IMG/VR virus record: IMGVR_UViG_2716884901_000002
Location: 1,469-65,468 of that record
Origin: a virus
Length of the DNA stretch: 64,000 nucleotides
Reading direction: 5' to 3' (one strand)
Part shown: positions 9,298-60,454 of the stretch, piece after piece
Position numbering within the stretch: the stretch's first letter is position 1
How the letters are laid out: each line of letters begins with the position of its first letter
The notes under the pieces: model-generated
Seen by the model: the letters and a program-made list of their open reading frames with translations, nothing else
What the model was told of the DNA's origin: nothing
The model's database searches: none
Translations under genes and position numbers: made by a program

Positions 9298-9521
9298 GCT
9301 GATTCCCTCAGTTGCTCAACGCGCTCAGTGGTGGTGACGAAGACCTTGTCGCGGATGCTGTTCAGCGTCGGAAGATCAAAGAGGCTGATCTTCTCGAAGC
9401 CTTCGAGCATGCCAAGGACAAAGGTCTGGTCCGGAACTGGGGTTGGCGACTTGGCCAGCTGGCGAAGTTGGGACATCACTTCGCCGATCGCCAGGGCGTG
9501 CATCTGCTCGGGGCTGTTCAA
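9294..9521 (-). CDS. Hypothetical protein (TTG start)
   Basis: 3' part of ORF 9294..9647; TTGA overlap with upstream stop. Confidence 0.5.
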   Translation of the reverse strand: MNSPEQMHALAIGEVMSQLRQLAKSPTPVPDQTFVLGMLEGFEKISLFDLPTLNSIRDKVFVTTTERVEQLRESA

Positions 9522-9946
9522 AATCCGCACTCCTGAATGTCGCGCTCGCGCTCCTGCTCGGCGGCGACGGCCTTGGCGGCAACCGGTCGCAGCAAGTCGG
9601 CGGCAATCTCCTTTAGCGCCTTGGGCCCGCCCACCAGGTAGGTGCAAAGCTCCATGATGAAGCCCTTGCTGCCTGTGCCCAGCCCGGCCATGACCAACTG
9701 CCCAAACGCGTCCTTCTGGTCCAGACCGTCGATCTGGCGGTTGTTCAGGTGGTCTTGCACTGCCCGGGCGAAGTCAGCCTGGGTGATCTCGCCGCGCTCG
9801 CCGCGATAACCCCAGCTGACCCGATAACCCAGGACCATCTGCGATGCGTGAGTTTCAATCCACTCCGCCTGGGCGGCGTCATCGTCGCTCACCGCCGGAG
9901 GCAACTGGTTGTCGTAGTGCCATTGTGCTGCTCGAAGTGCGCCCAT
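9518..9946 (-). CDS. Hypothetical phage protein (MGALRAAQWHYDNQLPP...)
   Basis: Strong RBS tggagg upstream of ATG 9946. Confidence 0.6.
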   Translation of the reverse strand: MGALRAAQWHYDNQLPPAVSDDDAAQAEWIETHASQMVLGYRVSWGYRGERGEITQADFARAVQDHLNNRQIDGLDQKDAFGQLVMAGLGTGSKGFIMELCTYLVGGPKALKEIAADLLRPVAAKAVAAEQERERDIQECGF

Positions 9947-10077
9947 GGCGTCCTCCAGGTTGGTTATGCGGCCGCATTGGCCAGGAGCCATGCGCGGGTG
10001 ACCAAACCCACCGTGAAAGGTGGCCTGGCGCCTGCCTAATGCGGTCGTTTGTGAAGGGAAGGGGGTGCGGGGTGCTG

Positions 10078-39275: not shown

Positions 39276-39860
39276 ATGGCCGCATTAGCTGCGTACTACG
39301 AGCCGATGACAGTTATTAAGCTCTCTGGATCTCTCGCTCAGAAATTCGGGCGAGTGCATCGCAGAATGTTAGAGAAGGGAACGACCTTTGAAGCATTCAG
39401 CGCCCTTAAGGCAACGCTTGATGGGTTCGAGGATGAGGTAAAGCGGCTCAATGGGCTGGGAATGCGGTTTGCCATTTTCCGAAATCGAAAGAACGCTGGC
39501 ATGGATGATATGGGGCGCTGCGGTACTCGGGAGGTGCGCATAGTTCCCGTGGTGGAAGGGAGCAAGCGCGGCGGAGTACTCCAGACGATAGTAGGGGCCG
39601 TTTTGATTGCGGCCAGCTTTTTCGGTGCACCAACCTTGCAGATAGGTATTGCCCTTGTAGCCGGTGGCGTCATCCAGATGCTCAGCCCCCAGGCCAAGGG
39701 CCTATCCCAGAGCGCTGCGCCAGAAAACCTGCCTTCCTACGCCTTCGGATCAGCCAAGAACACCATTGCCAGCGGCAACCCTGTCCCTATTTGCATCGGC
39801 AAGCGCCGCTGGGGCGGGGCGATCATTTCGGCTTCCATCTACGCCGAAGACCAAACCTGA
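39276..39860 (+). CDS. Tail assembly protein I
   Basis: IKLSGSLAQKFGR...RIVPVVEGSK...GNPVPICIG. Confidence 0.9.
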   Translation: MAALAAYYEPMTVIKLSGSLAQKFGRVHRRMLEKGTTFEAFSALKATLDGFEDEVKRLNGLGMRFAIFRNRKNAGMDDMGRCGTREVRIVPVVEGSKRGGVLQTIVGAVLIAASFFGAPTLQIGIALVAGGVIQMLSPQAKGLSQSAAPENLPSYAFGSAKNTIASGNPVPICIGKRRWGGAIISASIYAEDQT

Positions 39861-39915
39861 TTTAACGCAGCGACCAAGCCGCCTCCGGGCGGCTTTTTAA
39901 TGCCTGGAGGAAAGC

Positions 39916-42900
39916 ATGGGCGCAGCAGCTCACCTGAACATCGCCGGCGCCAAAGGCGGAGAAAGCAAGCCGAAGACCCCTGTCGAGGCGCCGGACAGCC
40001 TTCAGTCGACGAACATCGCCAAGATCCTACTCGCCGTAGGCGAGGGGGAGTTCGACGGGACCCCGACCGCCCGTGATATCTACCTCGATAACACCCCGAT
40101 TGTGGATGCCAGCGGCAACGTCAACTTTCCGGGCGTGAAGTGGGAGTGGCGCCCCGGAAGCATTGATCAGAGCTACATCCAGGGCATCCCGGCCGTAGAG
40201 AACGAAACCACGGTTGGCGTTGAGCTGCGCAGCGACAGCCCATGGGCGCGAGCCTTGAGCAATATTCAACTGTCCGCCGTGCGCCTGCGCTTCAGTTGGC
40301 CGCGCCTGGCCAAACAGGATAGCGAGGGCAACACGAACGGCTACCGGATCGAATATGCGATCGACATCGCCACCGATGGCGGCGCTTACGTTGAGTCGCA
40401 TCGAGGCGCGGTGAGTGGGAAAACCACCAGTGGCTACCAGCGTTCCGTGCGAGTGGACCTGCCTGAGGCAACCACCGGCTGGATGATGCGCGTCCGTCGC
40501 ATCACTCCGAACGCGAACAGCGGAACCATCGCCGACACGATGAATATCGCTGGCTACACGGAGATCATCGACGAGAAGCTGCGCTATCCGAATACTGCTC
40601 TGCTCTACATCGAGTTTGACGCTCAGCAGTTCCAGAACATTCCGACGGTGACCGTCGACTGTCGGGCTAAGCGCTGGCCAGTGCCTTCGAACTACGATCC
40701 AGATACCCGCACCTATACCGGTGTGTGGGACGGCACTTTCAAGCAGGCCTGGACCAACAACCCGGCATTCGTGACCTATGGCCTGTGCGTTGAAGACCGT
40801 TTCGGCCTGGGTAAGCGCATCAAGTCGTGGATGGTCGACAAGTGGGAGATGTACAGGATCGCCCAATACTGCGACCAGTTGGTGTCGGATGGGCGCGGCG
40901 GCCTGGAGCCGCGATTCCTGTGTGACATGAACCTGCAGGGCCGTGCCGAGGCTTGGACACTGCTGCGCGACCTGTCGGCGATCTATCGCGGCATGGTGTA
41001 TTGGGCTCACGGCTCGCTGTTCATGCAGGCGGACATGCCGCGTGCGCAGGACATCGACTATGTCTTCACTCGCTCAAATGTCATCGACGGTAATTTTGAC
41101 TATGGTGGCGCCGAGCGCAACACCCACTACAGCCGCGCCCTGGTCAGCTACGACAACCCGGCCAACAACTACGACACCGACGTTATCCCTGTCACCGACT
41201 TGGCGCTGCAGCGCCGGTACCGCGACCGACCCATCGAGATCTCGGCCATCGGTTGCACCCGTGCATCCGAAGCCCAGCGTCGCGGCAAGTGGGCACTGCT
41301 GAGCAACAGCCAGGACCGCACCGTCACCTTCAAGACGGGCATGGAGGGTCGTATCCCGCTTCCTGGCTACGTCATCCCGGTGGCAGATGAGCTGGTAGCG
41401 GGGCGGCCGAATGGCGGCCGGATCTCGGCAGCAGCGGGACGGGTCGTGACTCTGGACCGTGACACGCCGATCAAGGCTGGCGACCGGTTGATCCTGAACC
41501 TGCCGAACGGGACCGCCCAGGCCCGGACGGTCCAGTCGGTCAGTGGCCGTGCCGTCACGGTGACCGTGGCCTACAGCGTTCAGCCTGAGCCGGAGCTGCA
41601 ATGGGCCATCGACTACGACGACCTGGCGGTGCAACTCTTCCGCGTGCTGAAGACAGCGCGCACCCAGGAAGGGGAATACGAAATCACGGCGTTGGAGTTC
41701 AACCCCAGCAAGTTTGCTGCGATCGATACCGGTGCCAAGCTGGAAGAGCGACCGATCAGCGTCATTCCGGTGACCACTGTGCAACCGCCGGCCAGCGTCA
41801 CGCTGACCTCGGCTTACGCAGTGGATCAGGGCATTGCCGTCAGCACCATGACCATCAGCTGGCCCGCAGTGCAGGGCGCCGTGGCCTATGACGTCGAATG
41901 GCGCAAGGATGACGGCAACTGGGTCCGCCTGCAGCGCACCGGCACCACCTCGGTTGATGTGGTTGGCATTTACGCTGGCGCCTACTTGGCCAGGGTTCGA
42001 GCCGTCAGCTCGTTCGACATCGCGTCGATTTGGCGAGACTCCAGCTTGACCGAACTGAAGGGCAAGGAAGGCCTACCGCCCTCGGTAACCTTCCTCACAG
42101 CCACCTCTCTGCTTTTCAGCATCTCGCTCAAATGGGGCATTCCACCAGGTGCCGAGGACACCCAGCGCACGGAAATCTGGTACAGCCAGTCGAACGACCT
42201 GGGGGCAGCGATCAAGCTGGCGGATCTGGCTTACCCGCAAACTGAGTACGTCATGCAGGGCTTGGCTGCTGGTGTGTCGCTGTTCTTCTGGGCTCGCCTG
42301 GTGGATAGAACCGGAAACATCGGCCCTTGGTACCCGGTGGGTAGTGGCGTGCTTGGTCAGTCTGGGTCGGATGCAGGCCCCATCCTCGACCTGATCAGCG
42401 GCGAAATTGACGAGTCCATGCTTGGCCAAGAGCTCAAGGACAAGATCGAAGGTCTTCAAGATCAGATTGATGCCCTTGACGGGTTGAAGGCTTACGACAA
42501 GGGCTTGGCCTATACGAAGGACCAGATGGTGGTCGAGGATGGCCGCATCTATCAGGCCAAGATTGCTGTCCCTGCCAACGCTTCTGGAGCAAACGCACCG
42601 CCAAACGTGACCTATTGGATAGACGTCGGTCAGTCGGTTACCACGGCCAATGGCCTCGCTCAGCAGGTCAGCACCAACACGACCAAAATCGCCGAGGTCG
42701 ATGGCAAAGTCACTGTGGCGGCCGAAAGCCAGCAGGTGCTCAGGGCGTCTTATCGCGACGACAGTGTCGAAGGCGACCTTGCCGCGGCGATCAACCAGTG
42801 GAACTCGACCGCTGCCTTTGCTGCTGAGGTGAAAGCAACGGCTACGCGGGAAGAGGCAATTGTCCGGAAGACCGAGACACTCGAAGCGTCGATAGGCCAG

Positions 42901-43383
42901 ACGAATGCTGCTGTGCAGACCGTCAGCCAGGCCCAAGCCACGGCGGATGGCAAGGCCAGCACGATGTGGGCGGTCAAGATGCAGCTCAACGCTCAGGGCC
43001 AGTATGTGGCGGCAGGCATTGGTCTTGGCATCGAGAACGGGCCGGCCGGGTTGCAGAGTCAGTTCCTGGTGTCGGCTGACCGTTTCGCTGTGGTCAACGG
43101 TATCAACGGCACGCTCTCGTCGCCGTTCGCCGTGCAGGGTGGACAGGTGTTCATGAACGAGGCATTCATCGCCGACGGCACGATCACCAACGCCAAGATC
43201 GGCAGCTACATCAGCTCAACCAACTATGTGGCGGGCCAGCAGGGCTGGATCCTTAACAAGTCCGGCACCTTTGAAATCAACGGGACAGTCGCAGGGCAGG
43301 GGCGCTTGCTCCTGAATAACCAGCGCCTGCGGATATTCCATGCCAACGGCAACCTGGCGATTGACCTCGGAGTGAACGTATGA
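39916..43383 (+). CDS. Tail tip/host specificity protein J
   Basis: GAKGG N-terminus, WTNNPA, FN3-like region, C-terminal DUF1983-like ADRFAVV...FMNEAFI. Confidence 0.92.
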   Translation: MGAAAHLNIAGAKGGESKPKTPVEAPDSLQSTNIAKILLAVGEGEFDGTPTARDIYLDNTPIVDASGNVNFPGVKWEWRPGSIDQSYIQGIPAVENETTVGVELRSDSPWARALSNIQLSAVRLRFSWPRLAKQDSEGNTNGYRIEYAIDIATDGGAYVESHRGAVSGKTTSGYQRSVRVDLPEATTGWMMRVRRITPNANSGTIADTMNIAGYTEIIDEKLRYPNTALLYIEFDAQQFQNIPTVTVDCRAKRWPVPSNYDPDTRTYTGVWDGTFKQAWTNNPAFVTYGLCVEDRFGLGKRIKSWMVDKWEMYRIAQYCDQLVSDGRGGLEPRFLCDMNLQGRAEAWTLLRDLSAIYRGMVYWAHGSLFMQADMPRAQDIDYVFTRSNVIDGNFDYGGAERNTHYSRALVSYDNPANNYDTDVIPVTDLALQRRYRDRPIEISAIGCTRASEAQRRGKWALLSNSQDRTVTFKTGMEGRIPLPGYVIPVADELVAGRPNGGRISAAAGRVVTLDRDTPIKAGDRLILNLPNGTAQARTVQSVSGRAVTVTVAYSVQPEPELQWAIDYDDLAVQLFRVLKTARTQEGEYEITALEFNPSKFAAIDTGAKLEERPISVIPVTTVQPPASVTLTSAYAVDQGIAVSTMTISWPAVQGAVAYDVEWRKDDGNWVRLQRTGTTSVDVVGIYAGAYLARVRAVSSFDIASIWRDSSLTELKGKEGLPPSVTFLTATSLLFSISLKWGIPPGAEDTQRTEIWYSQSNDLGAAIKLADLAYPQTEYVMQGLAAGVSLFFWARLVDRTGNIGPWYPVGSGVLGQSGSDAGPILDLISGEIDESMLGQELKDKIEGLQDQIDALDGLKAYDKGLAYTKDQMVVEDGRIYQAKIAVPANASGANAPPNVTYWIDVGQSVTTANGLAQQVSTNTTKIAEVDGKVTVAAESQQVLRASYRDDSVEGDLAAAINQWNSTAAFAAEVKATATREEAIVRKTETLEASIGQTNAAVQTVSQAQATADGKASTMWAVKMQLNAQGQYVAAGIGLGIENGPAGLQSQFLVSADRFAVVNGINGTLSSPFAVQGGQVFMNEAFIADGTITNAKIGSYISSTNYVAGQQGWILNKSGTFEINGTVAGQGRLLLNNQRLRIFHANGNLAIDLGVNV

Positions 43384-47571: not shown

Positions 47572-48198
47572 CTATTTTTTTTCATGCGCTCGCTTAAATA
47601 GCTCTTTTATTGCTCCAGTGCTAAGTGCTAGCGAGATTGAAGCCAAGATGGTGATTATTAAGTTTGATGTGAATTTTCCCGAGTAGGGAAGGACTGTAGT
47701 TACTATTTCTGATGAGTATGTGCTCGAAGTTTCTGAGGCGGTTTGCAAGACGCCTAAGACTTCTGCTGTTGACGCATCTGAGATGTTTAACAGCTCGATG
47801 TATTTGATAAATTTTTGTTCTTGGTCCTGATATAGCCTGCCTTGATCTTCTGCTATTTTTTTTATCGTGTTCTGGACATTTTCAATCGATTTTTCCCGAT
47901 CTGTAGAGATTGACGCGACCTCCACAATGTTCGTATTTTTTACTGGACTTACAGTGGAGGTTCCTGAGTACTTGTAAGATGTTTGCTCTGGACTCTCCAG
48001 CGGTGTGAGAGTGTTTGTGTATAAGCTTAAGCTTTTGCCAATTGTTACGATGGAAGTACTCTGATATAGCGTTGGTCTGGTTATCGTGTATGCCAGCCCA
48101 GCTATTGTGATTAAGATAAAAGTTGCCACGATTACTCTGGCTTGCGATGAGATAAATTTATAGATATCTACAATTGAAATTTCGTCGCTTCCTTGCAT
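47572..48198 (-). CDS. Short Wzz-like (polysaccharide co-polymerase N-terminal domain) membrane protein
   Basis: DEISIVDIYKFI...TM1...RPTLYQSTSIV, short periplasmic part, C-terminal TM2; AT-rich. Confidence 0.7.
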   Translation of the reverse strand: MQGSDEISIVDIYKFISSQARVIVATFILITIAGLAYTITRPTLYQSTSIVTIGKSLSLYTNTLTPLESPEQTSYKYSGTSTVSPVKNTNIVEVASISTDREKSIENVQNTIKKIAEDQGRLYQDQEQKFIKYIELLNISDASTAEVLGVLQTASETSSTYSSEIVTTVLPYSGKFTSNLIITILASISLALSTGAIKELFKRAHEKK

Positions 48199-52825: not shown

Positions 52826-53548
52826 ATGATCTACAACAGCGTATCGGGTGCAGTGGTGGCGGCTTTGGCGGCTGGTGAAAAGGGCGCCGCGAAGGGGCAG
52901 GCCTGGCAGAAGCTCTACAAAGCGGCAGAGGAAGAGGGCGGTTGCCTGGCTTCACTCGGAGGGCAGTCGGGTGGTTTTGATCGGGCTCAGGTGGACTACT
53001 GGCTGTCCGCTCGACTGCACCACTTGTTGATTCCTCGGCACTGGCAGGCGCTTAATGCCAAGTATGCCACCAGCAAGGGGAAGAAGCTGCAGGGCATCTC
53101 GTCCATTGCGCCACTGATCGCCAGCCCAGCGCCGCAGCTGTTCATCTACAAGGCGGTCACGGCCTGGGCTGTGCCTAAGTTGAAAGGGGCTCGCCGGAAA
53201 GGCCCGCGCTCCGTGTCGGTGGAGATTCCGCTGAACGCGCCAGAGTGGCGTCGCAACAACCTAGTCAATGCTGCGCTGGCGGCTGGTCAGGCTGAGCGGA
53301 AGAAGGCAGAGGCGCTTGCCGATGACCTGATTGTTCTGCCCGACATCTTCTACGACATGAACACCTGGGATTTGAATGGAACTTCGGAGCCAACAAGGCG
53401 CCGCTGGCGGGCGGGGATCAAAAACACGCTTGACGAGATGGTGGCCGAAGCGCTTGCCCAAGTTGAAACTATCTTGATTGCGGAAGGATTGCTTCTAGAC
53501 CTCTTTGGGGCACAAATGAGAGGATGTCAATCAGTTATGGGAGGGTGA
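52826..53548 (+). CDS. Q-like antiterminator of prophage 2 (C-terminus extended by the insertion junction)
   Basis: MIYNSVSGAVVAALAA, homologous to 19874..20554. Confidence 0.65.
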   Translation: MIYNSVSGAVVAALAAGEKGAAKGQAWQKLYKAAEEEGGCLASLGGQSGGFDRAQVDYWLSARLHHLLIPRHWQALNAKYATSKGKKLQGISSIAPLIASPAPQLFIYKAVTAWAVPKLKGARRKGPRSVSVEIPLNAPEWRRNNLVNAALAAGQAERKKAEALADDLIVLPDIFYDMNTWDLNGTSEPTRRRWRAGIKNTLDEMVAEALAQVETILIAEGLLLDLFGAQMRGCQSVMGG

Positions 53549-53551
53549 GAC

Positions 53552-54547
53552 ATGCAAGATTTGGAGACTTTACGCACTGGTTATCAGGACGTTCTGCCTC
53601 GCGCGGAGAGGCTAAAAAATGCTGTAATCGCAGAGCTGTTAGAGCTATTTCAAAAAAGCGGTGTGGCACTCGGTGTCCCGATTGAGAGTAGGGTCAAAGC
53701 CTGGGCCTCTATTGCTGAGAAACTTGATCGTAAGCGCATGGTTTTATCATCGATTCATGATTTGACTGATTTAATTGGAATACGAGTTATTTTGCTTTTC
53801 AAAAAAGACTTGGATGCCGTGCGCACAATTTTGTCTCAAAATTTCGAGCTGATTTCCTCGGAAGACACCGGTGAGCGTTTGGGAGAGTCTGAGTTCGGAT
53901 ATCAATCGCATCACTATCTGTTAAAAATTCCTGCTACCTGGCTCTCTGTGCCCACTTGGTCCGGGTTTGGAGGCTTTACTCTGGAATTTCAAGTTAGAAC
54001 CATGGCTCAGCACATTTGGGCCGCAGCATCACATAAGCTTCAGTATAAACAAGAGTCAGGGGTGCCCCATCCGATTAGGCGGTCTATTAATCGAGTTTCT
54101 GCACTTTTGGAAACCGTCGATTTGGAGATTCAACGAGTTTTAGATGAGCGGGATGCATATAAGGGCAATGTATTAGTCTCTACTGATTATGATCTTGTCG
54201 ATGATAGTGATCTGAATGTTGACAATTTGGCTTTGATCCTTTCCGAGATTTATCCGCGTGCGAATCGAGCGGAATTTGAAAACTATTCGGAACTCTTAAG
54301 TGATATGTTAGAGCTAGGCGTGAAGAGCCAAGCCGAAGCTCGTAAGATCTTCAGGCGACATTATGAACGTACTATGGCCGCAGAAAAAATGCATGTTGCT
54401 GATGGTGTTGGTGACTTTGATGAAGAGCCTGACACGCGGCCTACGGGGGTCTACTTCAAACACGTTGGACTGGCTCGTGAAGCACTACGAGGCGAATTCG
54501 GTGAAGAAATCTTTCGCTCTAAGCAGTTGACAACTGTGAGCGATTGA
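53552..54547 (+). CDS. RelA/SpoT-domain small alarmone synthetase with C-terminal extension
   Basis: SRVKAWASIAEK, DLIGIRV, GYQSHHY, EFQVRT and QHIWAAASHKLQYK; no HD hydrolase domain; AT-richer than flanks. Confidence 0.88.
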   Translation: MQDLETLRTGYQDVLPRAERLKNAVIAELLELFQKSGVALGVPIESRVKAWASIAEKLDRKRMVLSSIHDLTDLIGIRVILLFKKDLDAVRTILSQNFELISSEDTGERLGESEFGYQSHHYLLKIPATWLSVPTWSGFGGFTLEFQVRTMAQHIWAAASHKLQYKQESGVPHPIRRSINRVSALLETVDLEIQRVLDERDAYKGNVLVSTDYDLVDDSDLNVDNLALILSEIYPRANRAEFENYSELLSDMLELGVKSQAEARKIFRRHYERTMAAEKMHVADGVGDFDEEPDTRPTGVYFKHVGLAREALRGEFGEEIFRSKQLTTVSD

Positions 54548-54598
54548 GCGAGATTATCCCCATCCTGTTATTCCTGCGCGTGTTGAGGAGTGACGAAT
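54527..54598 (+). promoter_or_regulatory. Late promoter of prophage 2 overlapping the synthetase 3' end
   Basis: TTGACA-N17-GAGATT, then the 39-bp leader shared with 20607-20645 at identical spacing. Confidence 0.65.
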
Positions 54599-54847
54599 CT
54601 TCTCTCCGGAGCGGTCGCAACGCCCATCCAGGTTGGAGTCTTAGCCGGCATCGTAGCAATAGGGTTGATACTGCTGTTCATATCGAATCTGATGTATGCG
54701 AAAGTGCATGAGCCGAGCGTAGCGGATGAATCTACGAAGGAGGTTACCGGGATGAAAACACTAGACAGTGCGGTTCTGAAAACGAGTCAAGATGTCGGTG
54801 CCGGTATAGTCTCCAGCCTAATAGTTGCGCTGATTCGAGCCTTTTGA
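54590..54847 (+). CDS. Small 2-TM membrane protein in the late-promoter/terminator slot
   Basis: GAGGA-GTG start; two hydrophobic segments; terminator at 54858-54878. Confidence 0.65.
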   Translation: MTNLLSGAVATPIQVGVLAGIVAIGLILLFISNLMYAKVHEPSVADESTKEVTGMKTLDSAVLKTSQDVGAGIVSSLIVALIRAF

Positions 54848-54857
54848 GGCTCATCCG

Positions 54858-54878
54858 AGCCCGCGATAGCGGGCTTTT
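54858..54878 (+). terminator. Rho-independent terminator (tR'-like)
   Basis: AGCCCGC-GATA-GCGGGCTTTT. Confidence 0.75.
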
Positions 54879-54943
54879 CATTTAAAGCCCTGGTGATCGC
54901 CGGGGCTTTTTCATTTCCGCTCCCCGCAACGGGAGGAATCGAG

Positions 54944-55267
54944 ATGCCAAACATGCCCGAGAAGGATCCTGGCTTGTGGGCCGCTGTGCTCGCCTGGGCG
55001 CTGGCTCACCAGCCTCAGATGTATGCTGCTGGCCTGTCGGTAGCGATCGCTGCCCTTAGGGTGGTCTATGGCGGCGGCACTCGCCGGCAGATGATGCTGG
55101 AGGGCGCGCTCTGCGGCCTAATCACACTGGCCTTGGTGCCGCTGCTTGAATGGATGGGATTGCCGCAAGGCATGGCCACCTTTGCAGGTGGCGCTGTCGG
55201 TTTCATGGGAGTCGAAAAGCTTCGCGGCTACTCCGATTTGTTCCTTTCCCGCAAGGCTCAAGGCTGA
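54944..55267 (+). CDS. Lambda-S-family holin, possible dual start (Met1/Met4)
   Basis: MPNMPEKDP...; TM segments; EGALCG...FAGGAVGFMGVEKLR. Confidence 0.85.
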   Translation: MPNMPEKDPGLWAAVLAWALAHQPQMYAAGLSVAIAALRVVYGGGTRRQMMLEGALCGLITLALVPLLEWMGLPQGMATFAGGAVGFMGVEKLRGYSDLFLSRKAQG

Positions 55268-55605: not shown

Positions 55606-55758
55606 GGTGTCAGCGGATCGTCGAAACCCCACGGGGCGCCATACAGGCACGCCAGTGACGTGCTGCGAAAGGGGTAGGGGGGTCAAAAGCTAGGGATTCT
55701 CATCTATCTAGACCGCCTCCGACCCCACGCGCCCCTCACAGTCGTCAAGGGGTGACAC

Positions 55759-58903: not shown

Positions 58904-59047
58904 ATGAAACACAAGATCCAGTCTCGCGGCCTGCGCAGCGAGATGAGCCCGCGCGCGCTCGATAAATGGAACCCCGCGATCCAGGCGGCCGTCGAGAACA
59001 CCTCGGACACCATCACGGTGTACGGCGTGATCGGCGAAGACTGGTAG
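58904..59047 (+). pseudogene. Truncated ClpP-type head maturation protease
   Basis: MKHKIQ...TITVYGVIGEDW* stops at the inversion junction. Confidence 0.75.
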
Positions 59048-59600
59048 CCGCCGGCAGGTTCACACGCACGGAGCGCTGGTACCCATTGGTGGTCTTGCCG
59101 TCCACGGCGCCCAGGTGAGCCGCAACGTACGCCCCGCCGTCAGTGGCGATATCGATGGCGTACTCGATGCGATAACCGTTGGTGTTGCCGCTGCTGTCCT
59201 GCTTGGCCAGGCGCGGCCAGGACATCCGTACACGCACGGCGGAAAGTTGGGTATTGCTTAGCGCGCGGGTGAACGCGTTGTCACTGCGGAGCTCGACATT
59301 GACGGTGGTCTCGTTTTCAACCGCCGGGATGCCCTGGATGTAATCTTGCTCAACGGAGCCTGGGCGCCATTCCCATTTCACACCTGGGAAGTTCACGTTG
59401 CCGCTGGAGTCCGCGATTGGGGTGTTGTCTAGGTAGATATCGCGATCAGTCGGCGTGCCATCGAATTCGCCCTCGCCCACGGCCAACAGGATCTTGGCGA
59501 TGTTTGTCGACTGCAGGCTGTCCGGTGCCTCGACAGGAGTTTTCGGGTTGCTCTCACCGCCCTTGGCGCCGGTGATGTCCAGGTGAGCTGCTGCGCCCAT
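59043..59600 (-). pseudogene. J (tail tip) N-terminal fragment, inverted
   Basis: Near-identical to the N-terminus of 39916..43383; breaks at VNLPAAT. Confidence 0.9.
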
Positions 59601-59653
59601 GCTTTCCTCCGGGCAATAAAAAACCGCCTGGAGGCGGTTTTCTTTAATTTCAA

Positions 59654-59797
59654 CTAATCAAGAAACGTCAGTGAAAAAGCAACTAAAATAATGACCGCAC
59701 ACACAGTGGATACGCCCACCATGCCCACGAAATCCGCGCCCTTCTGCGACATTTTTCCCGAAATCTTGATGGCAACTGATACGACAATCTTAGGCAT
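59654..59797 (-). CDS. 47-aa TM peptide moron between I and J
   Basis: Hand-translated MPKIVVSVAIKISGKMSQKGADFVGMVGVSTVCAVIILVAFSLTFLD; RBS tggag; downstream terminator. Confidence 0.5.
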   Translation of the reverse strand: MPKIVVSVAIKISGKMSQKGADFVGMVGVSTVCAVIILVAFSLTFLD

Positions 59798-59854
59798 CTG
59801 AACTGCTCCAATGATGGAAATCACGGAGCAAGGTGTTCAGGGGCTGAAACGTCG

Positions 59855-60454
59855 TTACGTCTTGTCGTGCGCCTCAATCGAGGCCGAGATGATCGCCCCG
59901 CCCCAGCGGCGCTCGCCGATGCAGATCGGGACTGGATTGCCACTTGCAGTGGTGTTCTTGGCGCTGCCAAAGGCGTAAGACGGCAGGTTCTCTGATGCGG
60001 CGCTTTGGGAAAGGCCCTTGGCCTGTGGGCTAAGCATCTGGATGACGCCGCCGGCGACCAATCCAATACCAGCGCTCATCAGTGGCGCACCGAACGGCGT
60101 AGCTGACAAAAAGGCACCGGCCACGATCATGACCACACCAATAATCGTCTGAAGCACGCCTGCTCGCTTGCTGCCTCTGATGACTGGAACAATTCGTACT
60201 TCTTGGCTGCCGCTTCGTTCAAAGTCTTTTTGTCCAATGTTTTTGCCATTCCGGAAGATAGCAAACCGCAAACCTTTTGAGTCGAGCCTCCTGATCTCTT
60301 CTTCGAACCCGGGAAGGGTAGCCTTCAAGGCCGAAAAGACCTCCTTCACAGTTCCGCTATCGATAAGCCGCTGATGGATCCTGCCGAATTTCTTAGCAAG
60401 CGCCCCAGACAACTTGATTGTAGTCATGCGACTACTCATCAAAACCGCAGTCAT
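59855..60454 (-). CDS. Tail assembly protein I of prophage 2
   Basis: Homolog of 39276..39860. Confidence 0.88.
   Translation of the reverse strand: MTAVLMSSRMTTIKLSGALAKKFGRIHQRLIDSGTVKEVFSALKATLPGFEEEIRRLDSKGLRFAIFRNGKNIGQKDFERSGSQEVRIVPVIRGSKRAGVLQTIIGVVMIVAGAFLSATPFGAPLMSAGIGLVAGGVIQMLSPQAKGLSQSAASENLPSYAFGSAKNTTASGNPVPICIGERRWGGAIISASIEAHDKT

Follow-up and report, generated by a model that had tools for sequence, protein, structure and literature searches.

The window, the 64,000-nucleotide stretch of viral DNA analysed here, carries at 53552-54547 (+) a gene for a 331-aa RelA/SpoT synthetase. With moderate confidence, and on comparative grounds, we interpret its product as a one-gene anti-phage growth-arrest enzyme that would be gated by its C-terminal tail and would make a nucleotide alarmone more likely than modify tRNA. 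This reading is supported by intact catalytic motifs, purifying selection, foreign composition, a location in cargo slots and the lack of a conserved partner gene. Counting against it are that no promoter was found for the gene in a sigma-70 scan and that some family members lie near greA and carB-like genes. In the lysogen, the enzyme would be kept quiet without a separate antitoxin. The helical C-terminal domain would act as the switch by binding an infection signal, either a phage protein or a host protein that has been displaced, and the activated enzyme would move pyrophosphate from ATP to a 3' hydroxyl, arresting the infected cell.

Control of the known toxic synthetases takes one of three forms: a separate antitoxin, a fused pseudo-zinc-finger (CapRel) or a partner nucleoid protein (PANGU). 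The family described here matches none of these three layouts, occurs in many phyla, would need only a single gene and could extend the known phage-defence sensors by a new domain. We put forward only tentatively that it represents a widespread third mode of toxSAS control, in which one gene with an undescribed helical domain reads an infection signal, possibly with a non-guanine acceptor; most family members lack the acidic residue in the helix that reads the acceptor.

The synthetase gene and its C-terminal domain

The gene ends with a stop codon at 54545-54547 and is preceded by a good ribosome-binding site, GGAGG at 53540-53544 (+), 7 nt before the ATG. Its GC content of 0.45 and GC3 of 0.42, compared to approximately 0.60 and 0.70 in the surroundings, mark it as foreign. 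A Pfam search with the protein returned a single match, RelA_SpoT at residues 46-168 (E 3e-20), and thus no hydrolase domain. With its catalytic motifs and without HD hydrolase, TGS or ACT domains, the protein has the composition of a small alarmone synthetase (SAS). This agrees with the original prediction, which had described an AT-rich stand-alone enzyme with all synthetase motifs and no hydrolase domain. The motif residues (R47-K49-S53, D73-G76-R78, Y117-S119-H121, E145-Q147-R149, H154-W156-A157, H161 and Y165-K166) were invariant across 120 relatives with the exception of S53, which is kept in 90% or more.

In the AlphaFold model (mean pLDDT 88.9), a synthetase domain of RelP/RelQ-type fold and a long helix at residues 173-210 (together residues 1-210; 53552-54181 (+)) are followed by a separate helical domain (residues ~211-331; 54182-54547 (+)). 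This extra domain of approximately 120 aa, referred to as the tail, is conserved in the SAS family, is predicted to be all-helical with a pLDDT of over 90 in its core, and is acidic, with a net charge of -11 over residues 205-331. The C-terminal stretch that the original prediction had left unexplained is modelled confidently as a domain of its own. Fold searches with the tail alone gave a best Z of 5.2 in the PDB (AAA+ lid-like bundles, nothing clear), no match below E 1 in the viral set, and other RelA/SpoT proteins and nothing else in the Atlas. The lack of a clear structural match is not evidence of a new fold.

Compared to a 92% identical copy in the related locus L086, dN/dS was 0.12 for the synthetase part, 0.14 for the tail and 0.13 overall, which indicates purifying selection on both domains. 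The gene had also been singled out as intact within a shredded prophage. The damage to the prophage was confirmed, but the Q-like, holin, HNH, TerL and portal genes around it are still open as well, so that the intactness of SAS alone is no sign of selection. As SAS has neither an antitoxin nor a sensor gene, the enzyme must either control itself or be harmless. Regulation through the C-terminal domain, as previously suggested, is likely, given the conserved tail and the missing partner gene.

The gap between the Q-like gene and the late promoter

SAS is flanked upstream by a gene for a Q-like late regulator (52826-53548 (+); phrog_3412) and downstream by a late-promoter-like element (TTGACA, 17 nt, GAGATT; 54527-54555 (+)) that overlaps the end of the SAS gene. 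TTGACA at 54527 falls within the last SAS codons, precisely as first noted, and the 17-nt spacer contains two TGAGCG repeats (54537-54542 and 54545-54550 (+)). The element was not listed by a simple sigma-70 scan and was recognised by its conservation across 80 loci. In 75 of the 80 closest relatives of the Q-like gene, a conserved TTGACA-17 nt-GAAATT follows the stop codon after just 3-7 nt, while the remaining five hold other inserts of approximately 660 or 1,594 nt in this slot. Judging from these relatives, SAS is an insertion between the Q-like gene and the late-promoter-like element, as had been proposed. SAS occupies the Q slot in the window and in L085, L052, L053, L054, L201 and L202; its end overlaps the -35 box in six of these seven loci, and no promoter match was found behind SAS in L202. 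The six Q-slot SAS proteins tested formed one clade (100/97), making a single insertion followed by spread the simplest history. SAS would have entered the Q-to-promoter gap of Pseudomonas-type prophages once.

The Q-like gene itself is a mosaic. Its first ~550 nt are approximately 90% identical to those of empty-site relatives, and beyond ~53375 the identity drops to 68% or less. The usual TAA stop codon is CAA here, and the frame extends to 3 nt before the SAS start. One residue near the C-terminus of the Q-like protein tracks the promoter spacer repeat with zero exceptions (arginine with GAGCG in 46 cases, tyrosine with GAGAG in 29), pointing to a putative protein-DNA recognition code, with just about three changes on the tree and, hence, few independent events. 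By its first 165 residues (96% identity), the Q-like gene of the window nests among tyrosine-type genes, yet it has arginine and GAGCG. Together with the drop in identity, this indicates that the 3' end of Q, SAS and the promoter came jointly, and we infer from these comparisons that they were acquired as a block by a crossover inside Q. Such blocks would spread via homologous recombination, which would keep the recognition residue of Q matched to the promoter repeat. The Q-like protein is presumably an antiterminator, based on its position, the covariation and a weak lead from the Atlas, where its look-alikes include a cluster with 11% Phage_antiter_Q; PHROGs lists it under 'unknown function' without a name.

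Behind the promoter, two terminator-like hairpins with T runs (54857-54909 (+)), putatively tR'-like, precede the flanking holin gene (54944-55267 (+)), the first gene of the late operon. Five terminator-like hairpins were found in the region compared to 3.0 expected, which is weak alone; similar hairpins also occur behind the promoter in L052-L054.

The Q-to-late-promoter gap of these prophages emerges as a cargo slot in which further defence genes may be sought. In L153 (3751-5268) and L157 it holds a 505-aa ATPase-TOPRIM gene, which in L153 matches the PADLOC models ATPase-Toprim, HEC-04, Old and GajA (E 2e-36). In L149 (3776-4330) and L155 it is filled by a 184-aa protein with N-terminal hydrophobic segments, for which PADLOC gave no match. 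The distance from the Q stop codon to the holin ranges from 130 to more than 2,500 nt among L092-L171, suggesting that cargo is also taken up downstream of the late promoter, in a second slot. In L201, SAS and the holin are separated by a HicAB toxin-antitoxin pair (9330-9986).

The window comprises one largely complete prophage followed by a second, deleted and rearranged prophage that contains SAS. Approximately 500 nt are missing at 55729/55730 relative to L092, before the large terminase gene, where L085 has a small terminase gene; the integrase-like gene of the second prophage is truncated. Inverted tail-gene fragments of the second prophage at 59013-60454 (-) resemble first-prophage genes at 39276-43383. 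Over the 19.4 kb compared, the region has the same sequence as CP026674.1, and the relatives point to a Pseudomonas host.

The SAS family and its relation to known systems

A word-index search yielded 1,087 matches to the SAS family, and 2,186 representatives were obtained at E<=1e-30, a count that may include neighbouring families. The family is characterised by the motif WAAxSHKLQYK together with the conserved tail. In a phylogeny of the kind that the original prediction had called for, built without PhRel2, FaRel and FaRel2, the family formed its own supported clade (96/96); tree tests left several deeper groupings of SAS standing, a joint clade with RelP/RelQ among them (p-AU 0.48). In the literature searched, with incomplete coverage, no study of the WAAxSHKLQYK family was found; it may equal one of the named but functionally uncharacterised subfamilies of Jimmy et al. 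(PMC7229694).

Loci of the family are patchily distributed among Proteobacteria, Planctomycetes and other phyla. Across 82 loci, neither a conserved partner or antitoxin gene adjacent to SAS nor a shared neighbour cluster was found, setting aside genes of the phage backbone and a single chromosomal site in alphaproteobacteria. In 11 of 31 viral loci, SAS is convergent with a P2 portal gene; several of these are near-copies, leaving approximately 6-7 independent cases. The region beside the P2 portal gene is the anti-phage hotspot of Rousset et al. (PMC9122126), and Table S5 of that paper includes RelA_SpoT genes, those shown being ParA-linked. PADLOC models also match neighbours of SAS in L069 and L021. 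The suggested anti-phage role gains support from the hotspot loci and from the PADLOC matches among the neighbours and in the slot gene. Related tails are also found on more distant SAS, in a Vibrio inovirus, in a Mycobacterium abscessus prophage and at a position next to an integrase. Some members reside in bacterial chromosomes without phage genes. An alphaproteobacterial branch (L040, L043, L045-L048) holds a constant chromosomal position close to greA and a carB-like gene, which indicates that not every member is mobile; this branch is possibly domesticated.

Fused CapRel (CapRel-SJ46, PDB 7ZTB) is likewise a single prophage gene that joins a synthetase to a C-terminal regulatory domain. 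In CapRel, autoinhibition is exerted by a pseudo-zinc-finger that carries a YXXY motif (PMC9712102), whereas the SAS tail is all-helical, gives a profile match to the CapRel-SJ46 C-terminus with a probability of 0.6%, and lacks YXXY; any YxxY occurs in the last 135 residues of 17 of 265 relatives. The two proteins share 16-17% identity, confined to the synthetase core, and SAS keeps a RelQ-like HxxxYK helix that is absent from CapRel. SAS did not group with CapRel/PhRel in the best tree, with the joint grouping not rejected (p-AU 0.12) at long branches. Identity with fused CapRel was rejected for the lack of a pseudo-zinc-finger and of YXXY; the C-terminal domain is thus not the one known from CapRel. 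PhRel-ATphRel (Phrann gp29-gp30; PMC7229694) resembles SAS as a prophage synthetase near lysis genes, and its core aligns with that of SAS (E 3e-7); however, PhRel requires a separate antitoxin, and SAS has none. The same difference separates SAS from the bicistronic toxSAS in general (PhRel, PhRel2, FaRel, FaRel2, split CapRel), all of which have a conserved adjacent antitoxin.

Pag1B (PANGU type I / GRel) is similar to SAS in its size of approximately 330 aa, its helical linker, its acidic C-terminal domain and the absence of an antitoxin. By itself it is inert, and it becomes active when a nucleoid protein binds the acidic tail; the synthetase domain in isolation shows no activity even though the system defends, and Pag1A and Pag1B are reported to co-evolve as pairs (bioRxiv 10.64898/2026.04.06.716658). 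A non-toxic truncation of SAS would, accordingly, not argue against defence. We took a family linked to nucleoid proteins (NAP; L194, L198 and relatives) as the presumed Pag1B family, based on gene context and on its member P0368, which matches Pag1B Y129, R258, R279 and R306 at zero offset. The SAS synthetase aligns with this family over 191 columns (probability 99.7%), and tail charges are similar (means of -6.6 and -6.7 in the two families). In contrast, the tails show no profile match at the sequence level to this presumed Pag1B family (hhalign probability 0.3%), the SAS motif reads WAAxSH instead of YAEVxH, and the two families form separate supported clades, a joint clade not being rejected (p-AU 0.38). 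No PANGU-type NAP gene was found within 5 kb of SAS in the 82 loci or in its own record, and 19 of 20 carrier phage records were without one; two of the carrier prophages have a gene for an NA37 protein at another place, and a single YejK is present in each of the Pseudomonas and Aeromonas carriers. Assignment to PANGU was rejected, as no NAP gene was found in cis and the tail is unrelated by sequence profile. Four Pag1B interface residues that match SAS at offset 10 were dismissed as chance, since 5 of 270 family members score four matches at one offset or another, R296 lacks conservation and the NAP-family protein matches at zero offset. By analogy, SAS plausibly acts like CapRel or Pag1B as a gated effector while being a member of neither system. 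Two gammaproteobacterial operons of NAP (NA37) and synthetase, in L194 (332-2409) and L198 (1117-3158), are candidate PANGU type I systems.

RelQ and RelP (YjbM/YwaC) were the best structural and sequence matches to SAS residues 1-203, with Z scores of 16.6-17.2 (rmsd 3.4-3.7) compared to 12.0 for CapRel and 7.4 for FaRel2. They differ from SAS in identity (22-26%), in length (approximately 210-230 aa versus 331 aa with the extra domain) and in the mobile, patchy occurrence of SAS, which scores 64.7 bits against NF053588 at a cut-off of 320. The glutamate that precedes the conserved histidine in RelP/RelQ is replaced by S160 in 263 of 265 SAS relatives. The PADLOC candidate PDC-S33, which we found named in no paper of the literature searched, is likewise a single-gene RelA/SpoT-type candidate; SAS matches it only in part (E 1e-14; residues 42-159, the synthetase part), and NAP-linked SAS score equally, indicating a domain-level match.

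Provided that SAS is active, a nucleotide alarmone, (p)ppGpp or (p)ppApp, is the moderately favoured product; a pyrophosphorylated tRNA CCA end is possible with clearly lower probability, and another product is unlikely. The nucleotide is favoured by the nearest structures being RelP/RelQ, by the 191-column match to the NAP-linked family and by the presence of just one conserved basic residue (R20, 73%) ahead of the first motif. RelP contacts guanine through K147, N149 and E189 (PMC13710873), which by motif position correspond to SAS S113, F115 and S160, and a glutamate invariant in the NAP-linked family aligns with SAS A158. This loss of the RelP guanine contacts weakens the case for (p)ppGpp and leaves room for adenine nucleotides or tRNA ends. 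tRNA-targeting enzymes have no separating sequence signature (bioRxiv 10.1101/2021.04.30.441581).

In three genomes (L195, L196 and L197), a divergent synthetase of approximately 290-315 aa directly follows a NACHT-like ATPase of approximately 490 aa, possibly forming another two-gene system.

Competing explanations and the hydrophobic ORF

SAS might not act in defence but be a non-toxic accessory synthetase that tunes host (p)ppGpp for stress tolerance or lysogen fitness, which we regard as rather improbable. RelP/RelQ are the closest solved structures and sequences, their joint clade with SAS was not rejected, no antitoxin is present and some members sit at the chromosomal site. However, identity to RelP/RelQ is low, the family forms its own clade, carries an extra conserved domain and has lost the guanine contacts, and its patchy occurrence centres on phage cargo slots. 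The location just upstream of the late promoter, on the same strand and 3 nt past the Q-like stop codon, would also fit a lytic-cycle gene that is co-transcribed with Q upon induction and helps the carrier phage by host shut-off, lysis timing or counter-defence. No terminator match was found between the two genes, and without a promoter match of its own SAS may be transcribed solely from the lytic early transcript. Such a role is unlikely, as 75 of 80 relatives do without SAS, P2-like phages carry it beside the portal gene and chromosomes carry it without phage genes; its retention in a prophage lacking head genes argues weakly in the same direction.

A special case of the anti-phage reading, with a named trigger, is that of an orphan PANGU-like effector, in which host YejK or prophage NdpA, as a nucleoid protein supplied in trans, would bind the acidic tail once phage nucleases break down the chromosome. 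The Pag1B-type layout and tail charge, the YejK of the carriers and the NA37 protein in two carrier prophages are in line with it; against it stand the unaligned tail profiles, the missing NAP genes and the co-evolution of Pag1A/Pag1B pairs, and we give it a low probability. A similarly low, marginally smaller one applies to SAS being neutral or selfish cargo, carried along by the Q/promoter block without benefit to the present host. As SAS overlaps the -35 box, part of it would not be freely deletable in an active phage, and its neighbours are likewise intact; low dN/dS along the whole gene and catalytic residues invariant across phyla speak for a selected function.

The least probable alternative, in our view very unlikely, is a toxin-antitoxin pair of SAS and an 85-aa hydrophobic ORF (54590-54847 (+)) in the promoter-to-terminator leader. 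This ORF had been described as a protein with two transmembrane segments. The ORF was recovered, but of its two hydrophobic segments one is strong (mean hydropathy 2.7) and the other weak (1.5), and its start is doubtful because the GTG abuts GAGGA of the conserved promoter leader. Compared to its homologue in the equivalent position of the SAS-free prophage L151 (46% identity), differences by codon position are 21/18/34 and synonymous changes occur at 15 of 26 conserved residues, so the ORF is probably coding. L151, which surfaced among the Q loci, is its sole homologue; no relatives beyond its own cluster were found in the protein database or in a direct viral scan. The ORF is adjacent to SAS on the same strand, before the first terminator-like hairpin, and the pair recurs in L085/L086. 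However, the more distant SAS loci L052, L053 and L054 lack it, and short hydrophobic ORFs lie downstream of SAS in only 6 of 82 loci, unrelated apart from that in L085. Between the window and L086 it differs by 1.6%, whereas SAS and Q differ by 8.5-9%, a divergence five times lower than that of SAS. Its absence from L052-L054, the homologue in L151 and the mismatched divergence argue that it is not, as had been supposed, a partner of SAS but separate cargo. The precedent invoked for a membrane partner, Phrann gp30, is itself shaky: as annotated, gp30 has no hydrophobic segment (maximum 0.2) and is hydrophilic, unlike the 85-aa ORF, and its counterpart in CapRel is a soluble antitoxin domain (PMC9712102). 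Behind the lysis genes of the first prophage, a 208-aa AT-rich ORF with hydrophobic ends (47572-48198 (-); GC 0.40) is likely another cargo gene.
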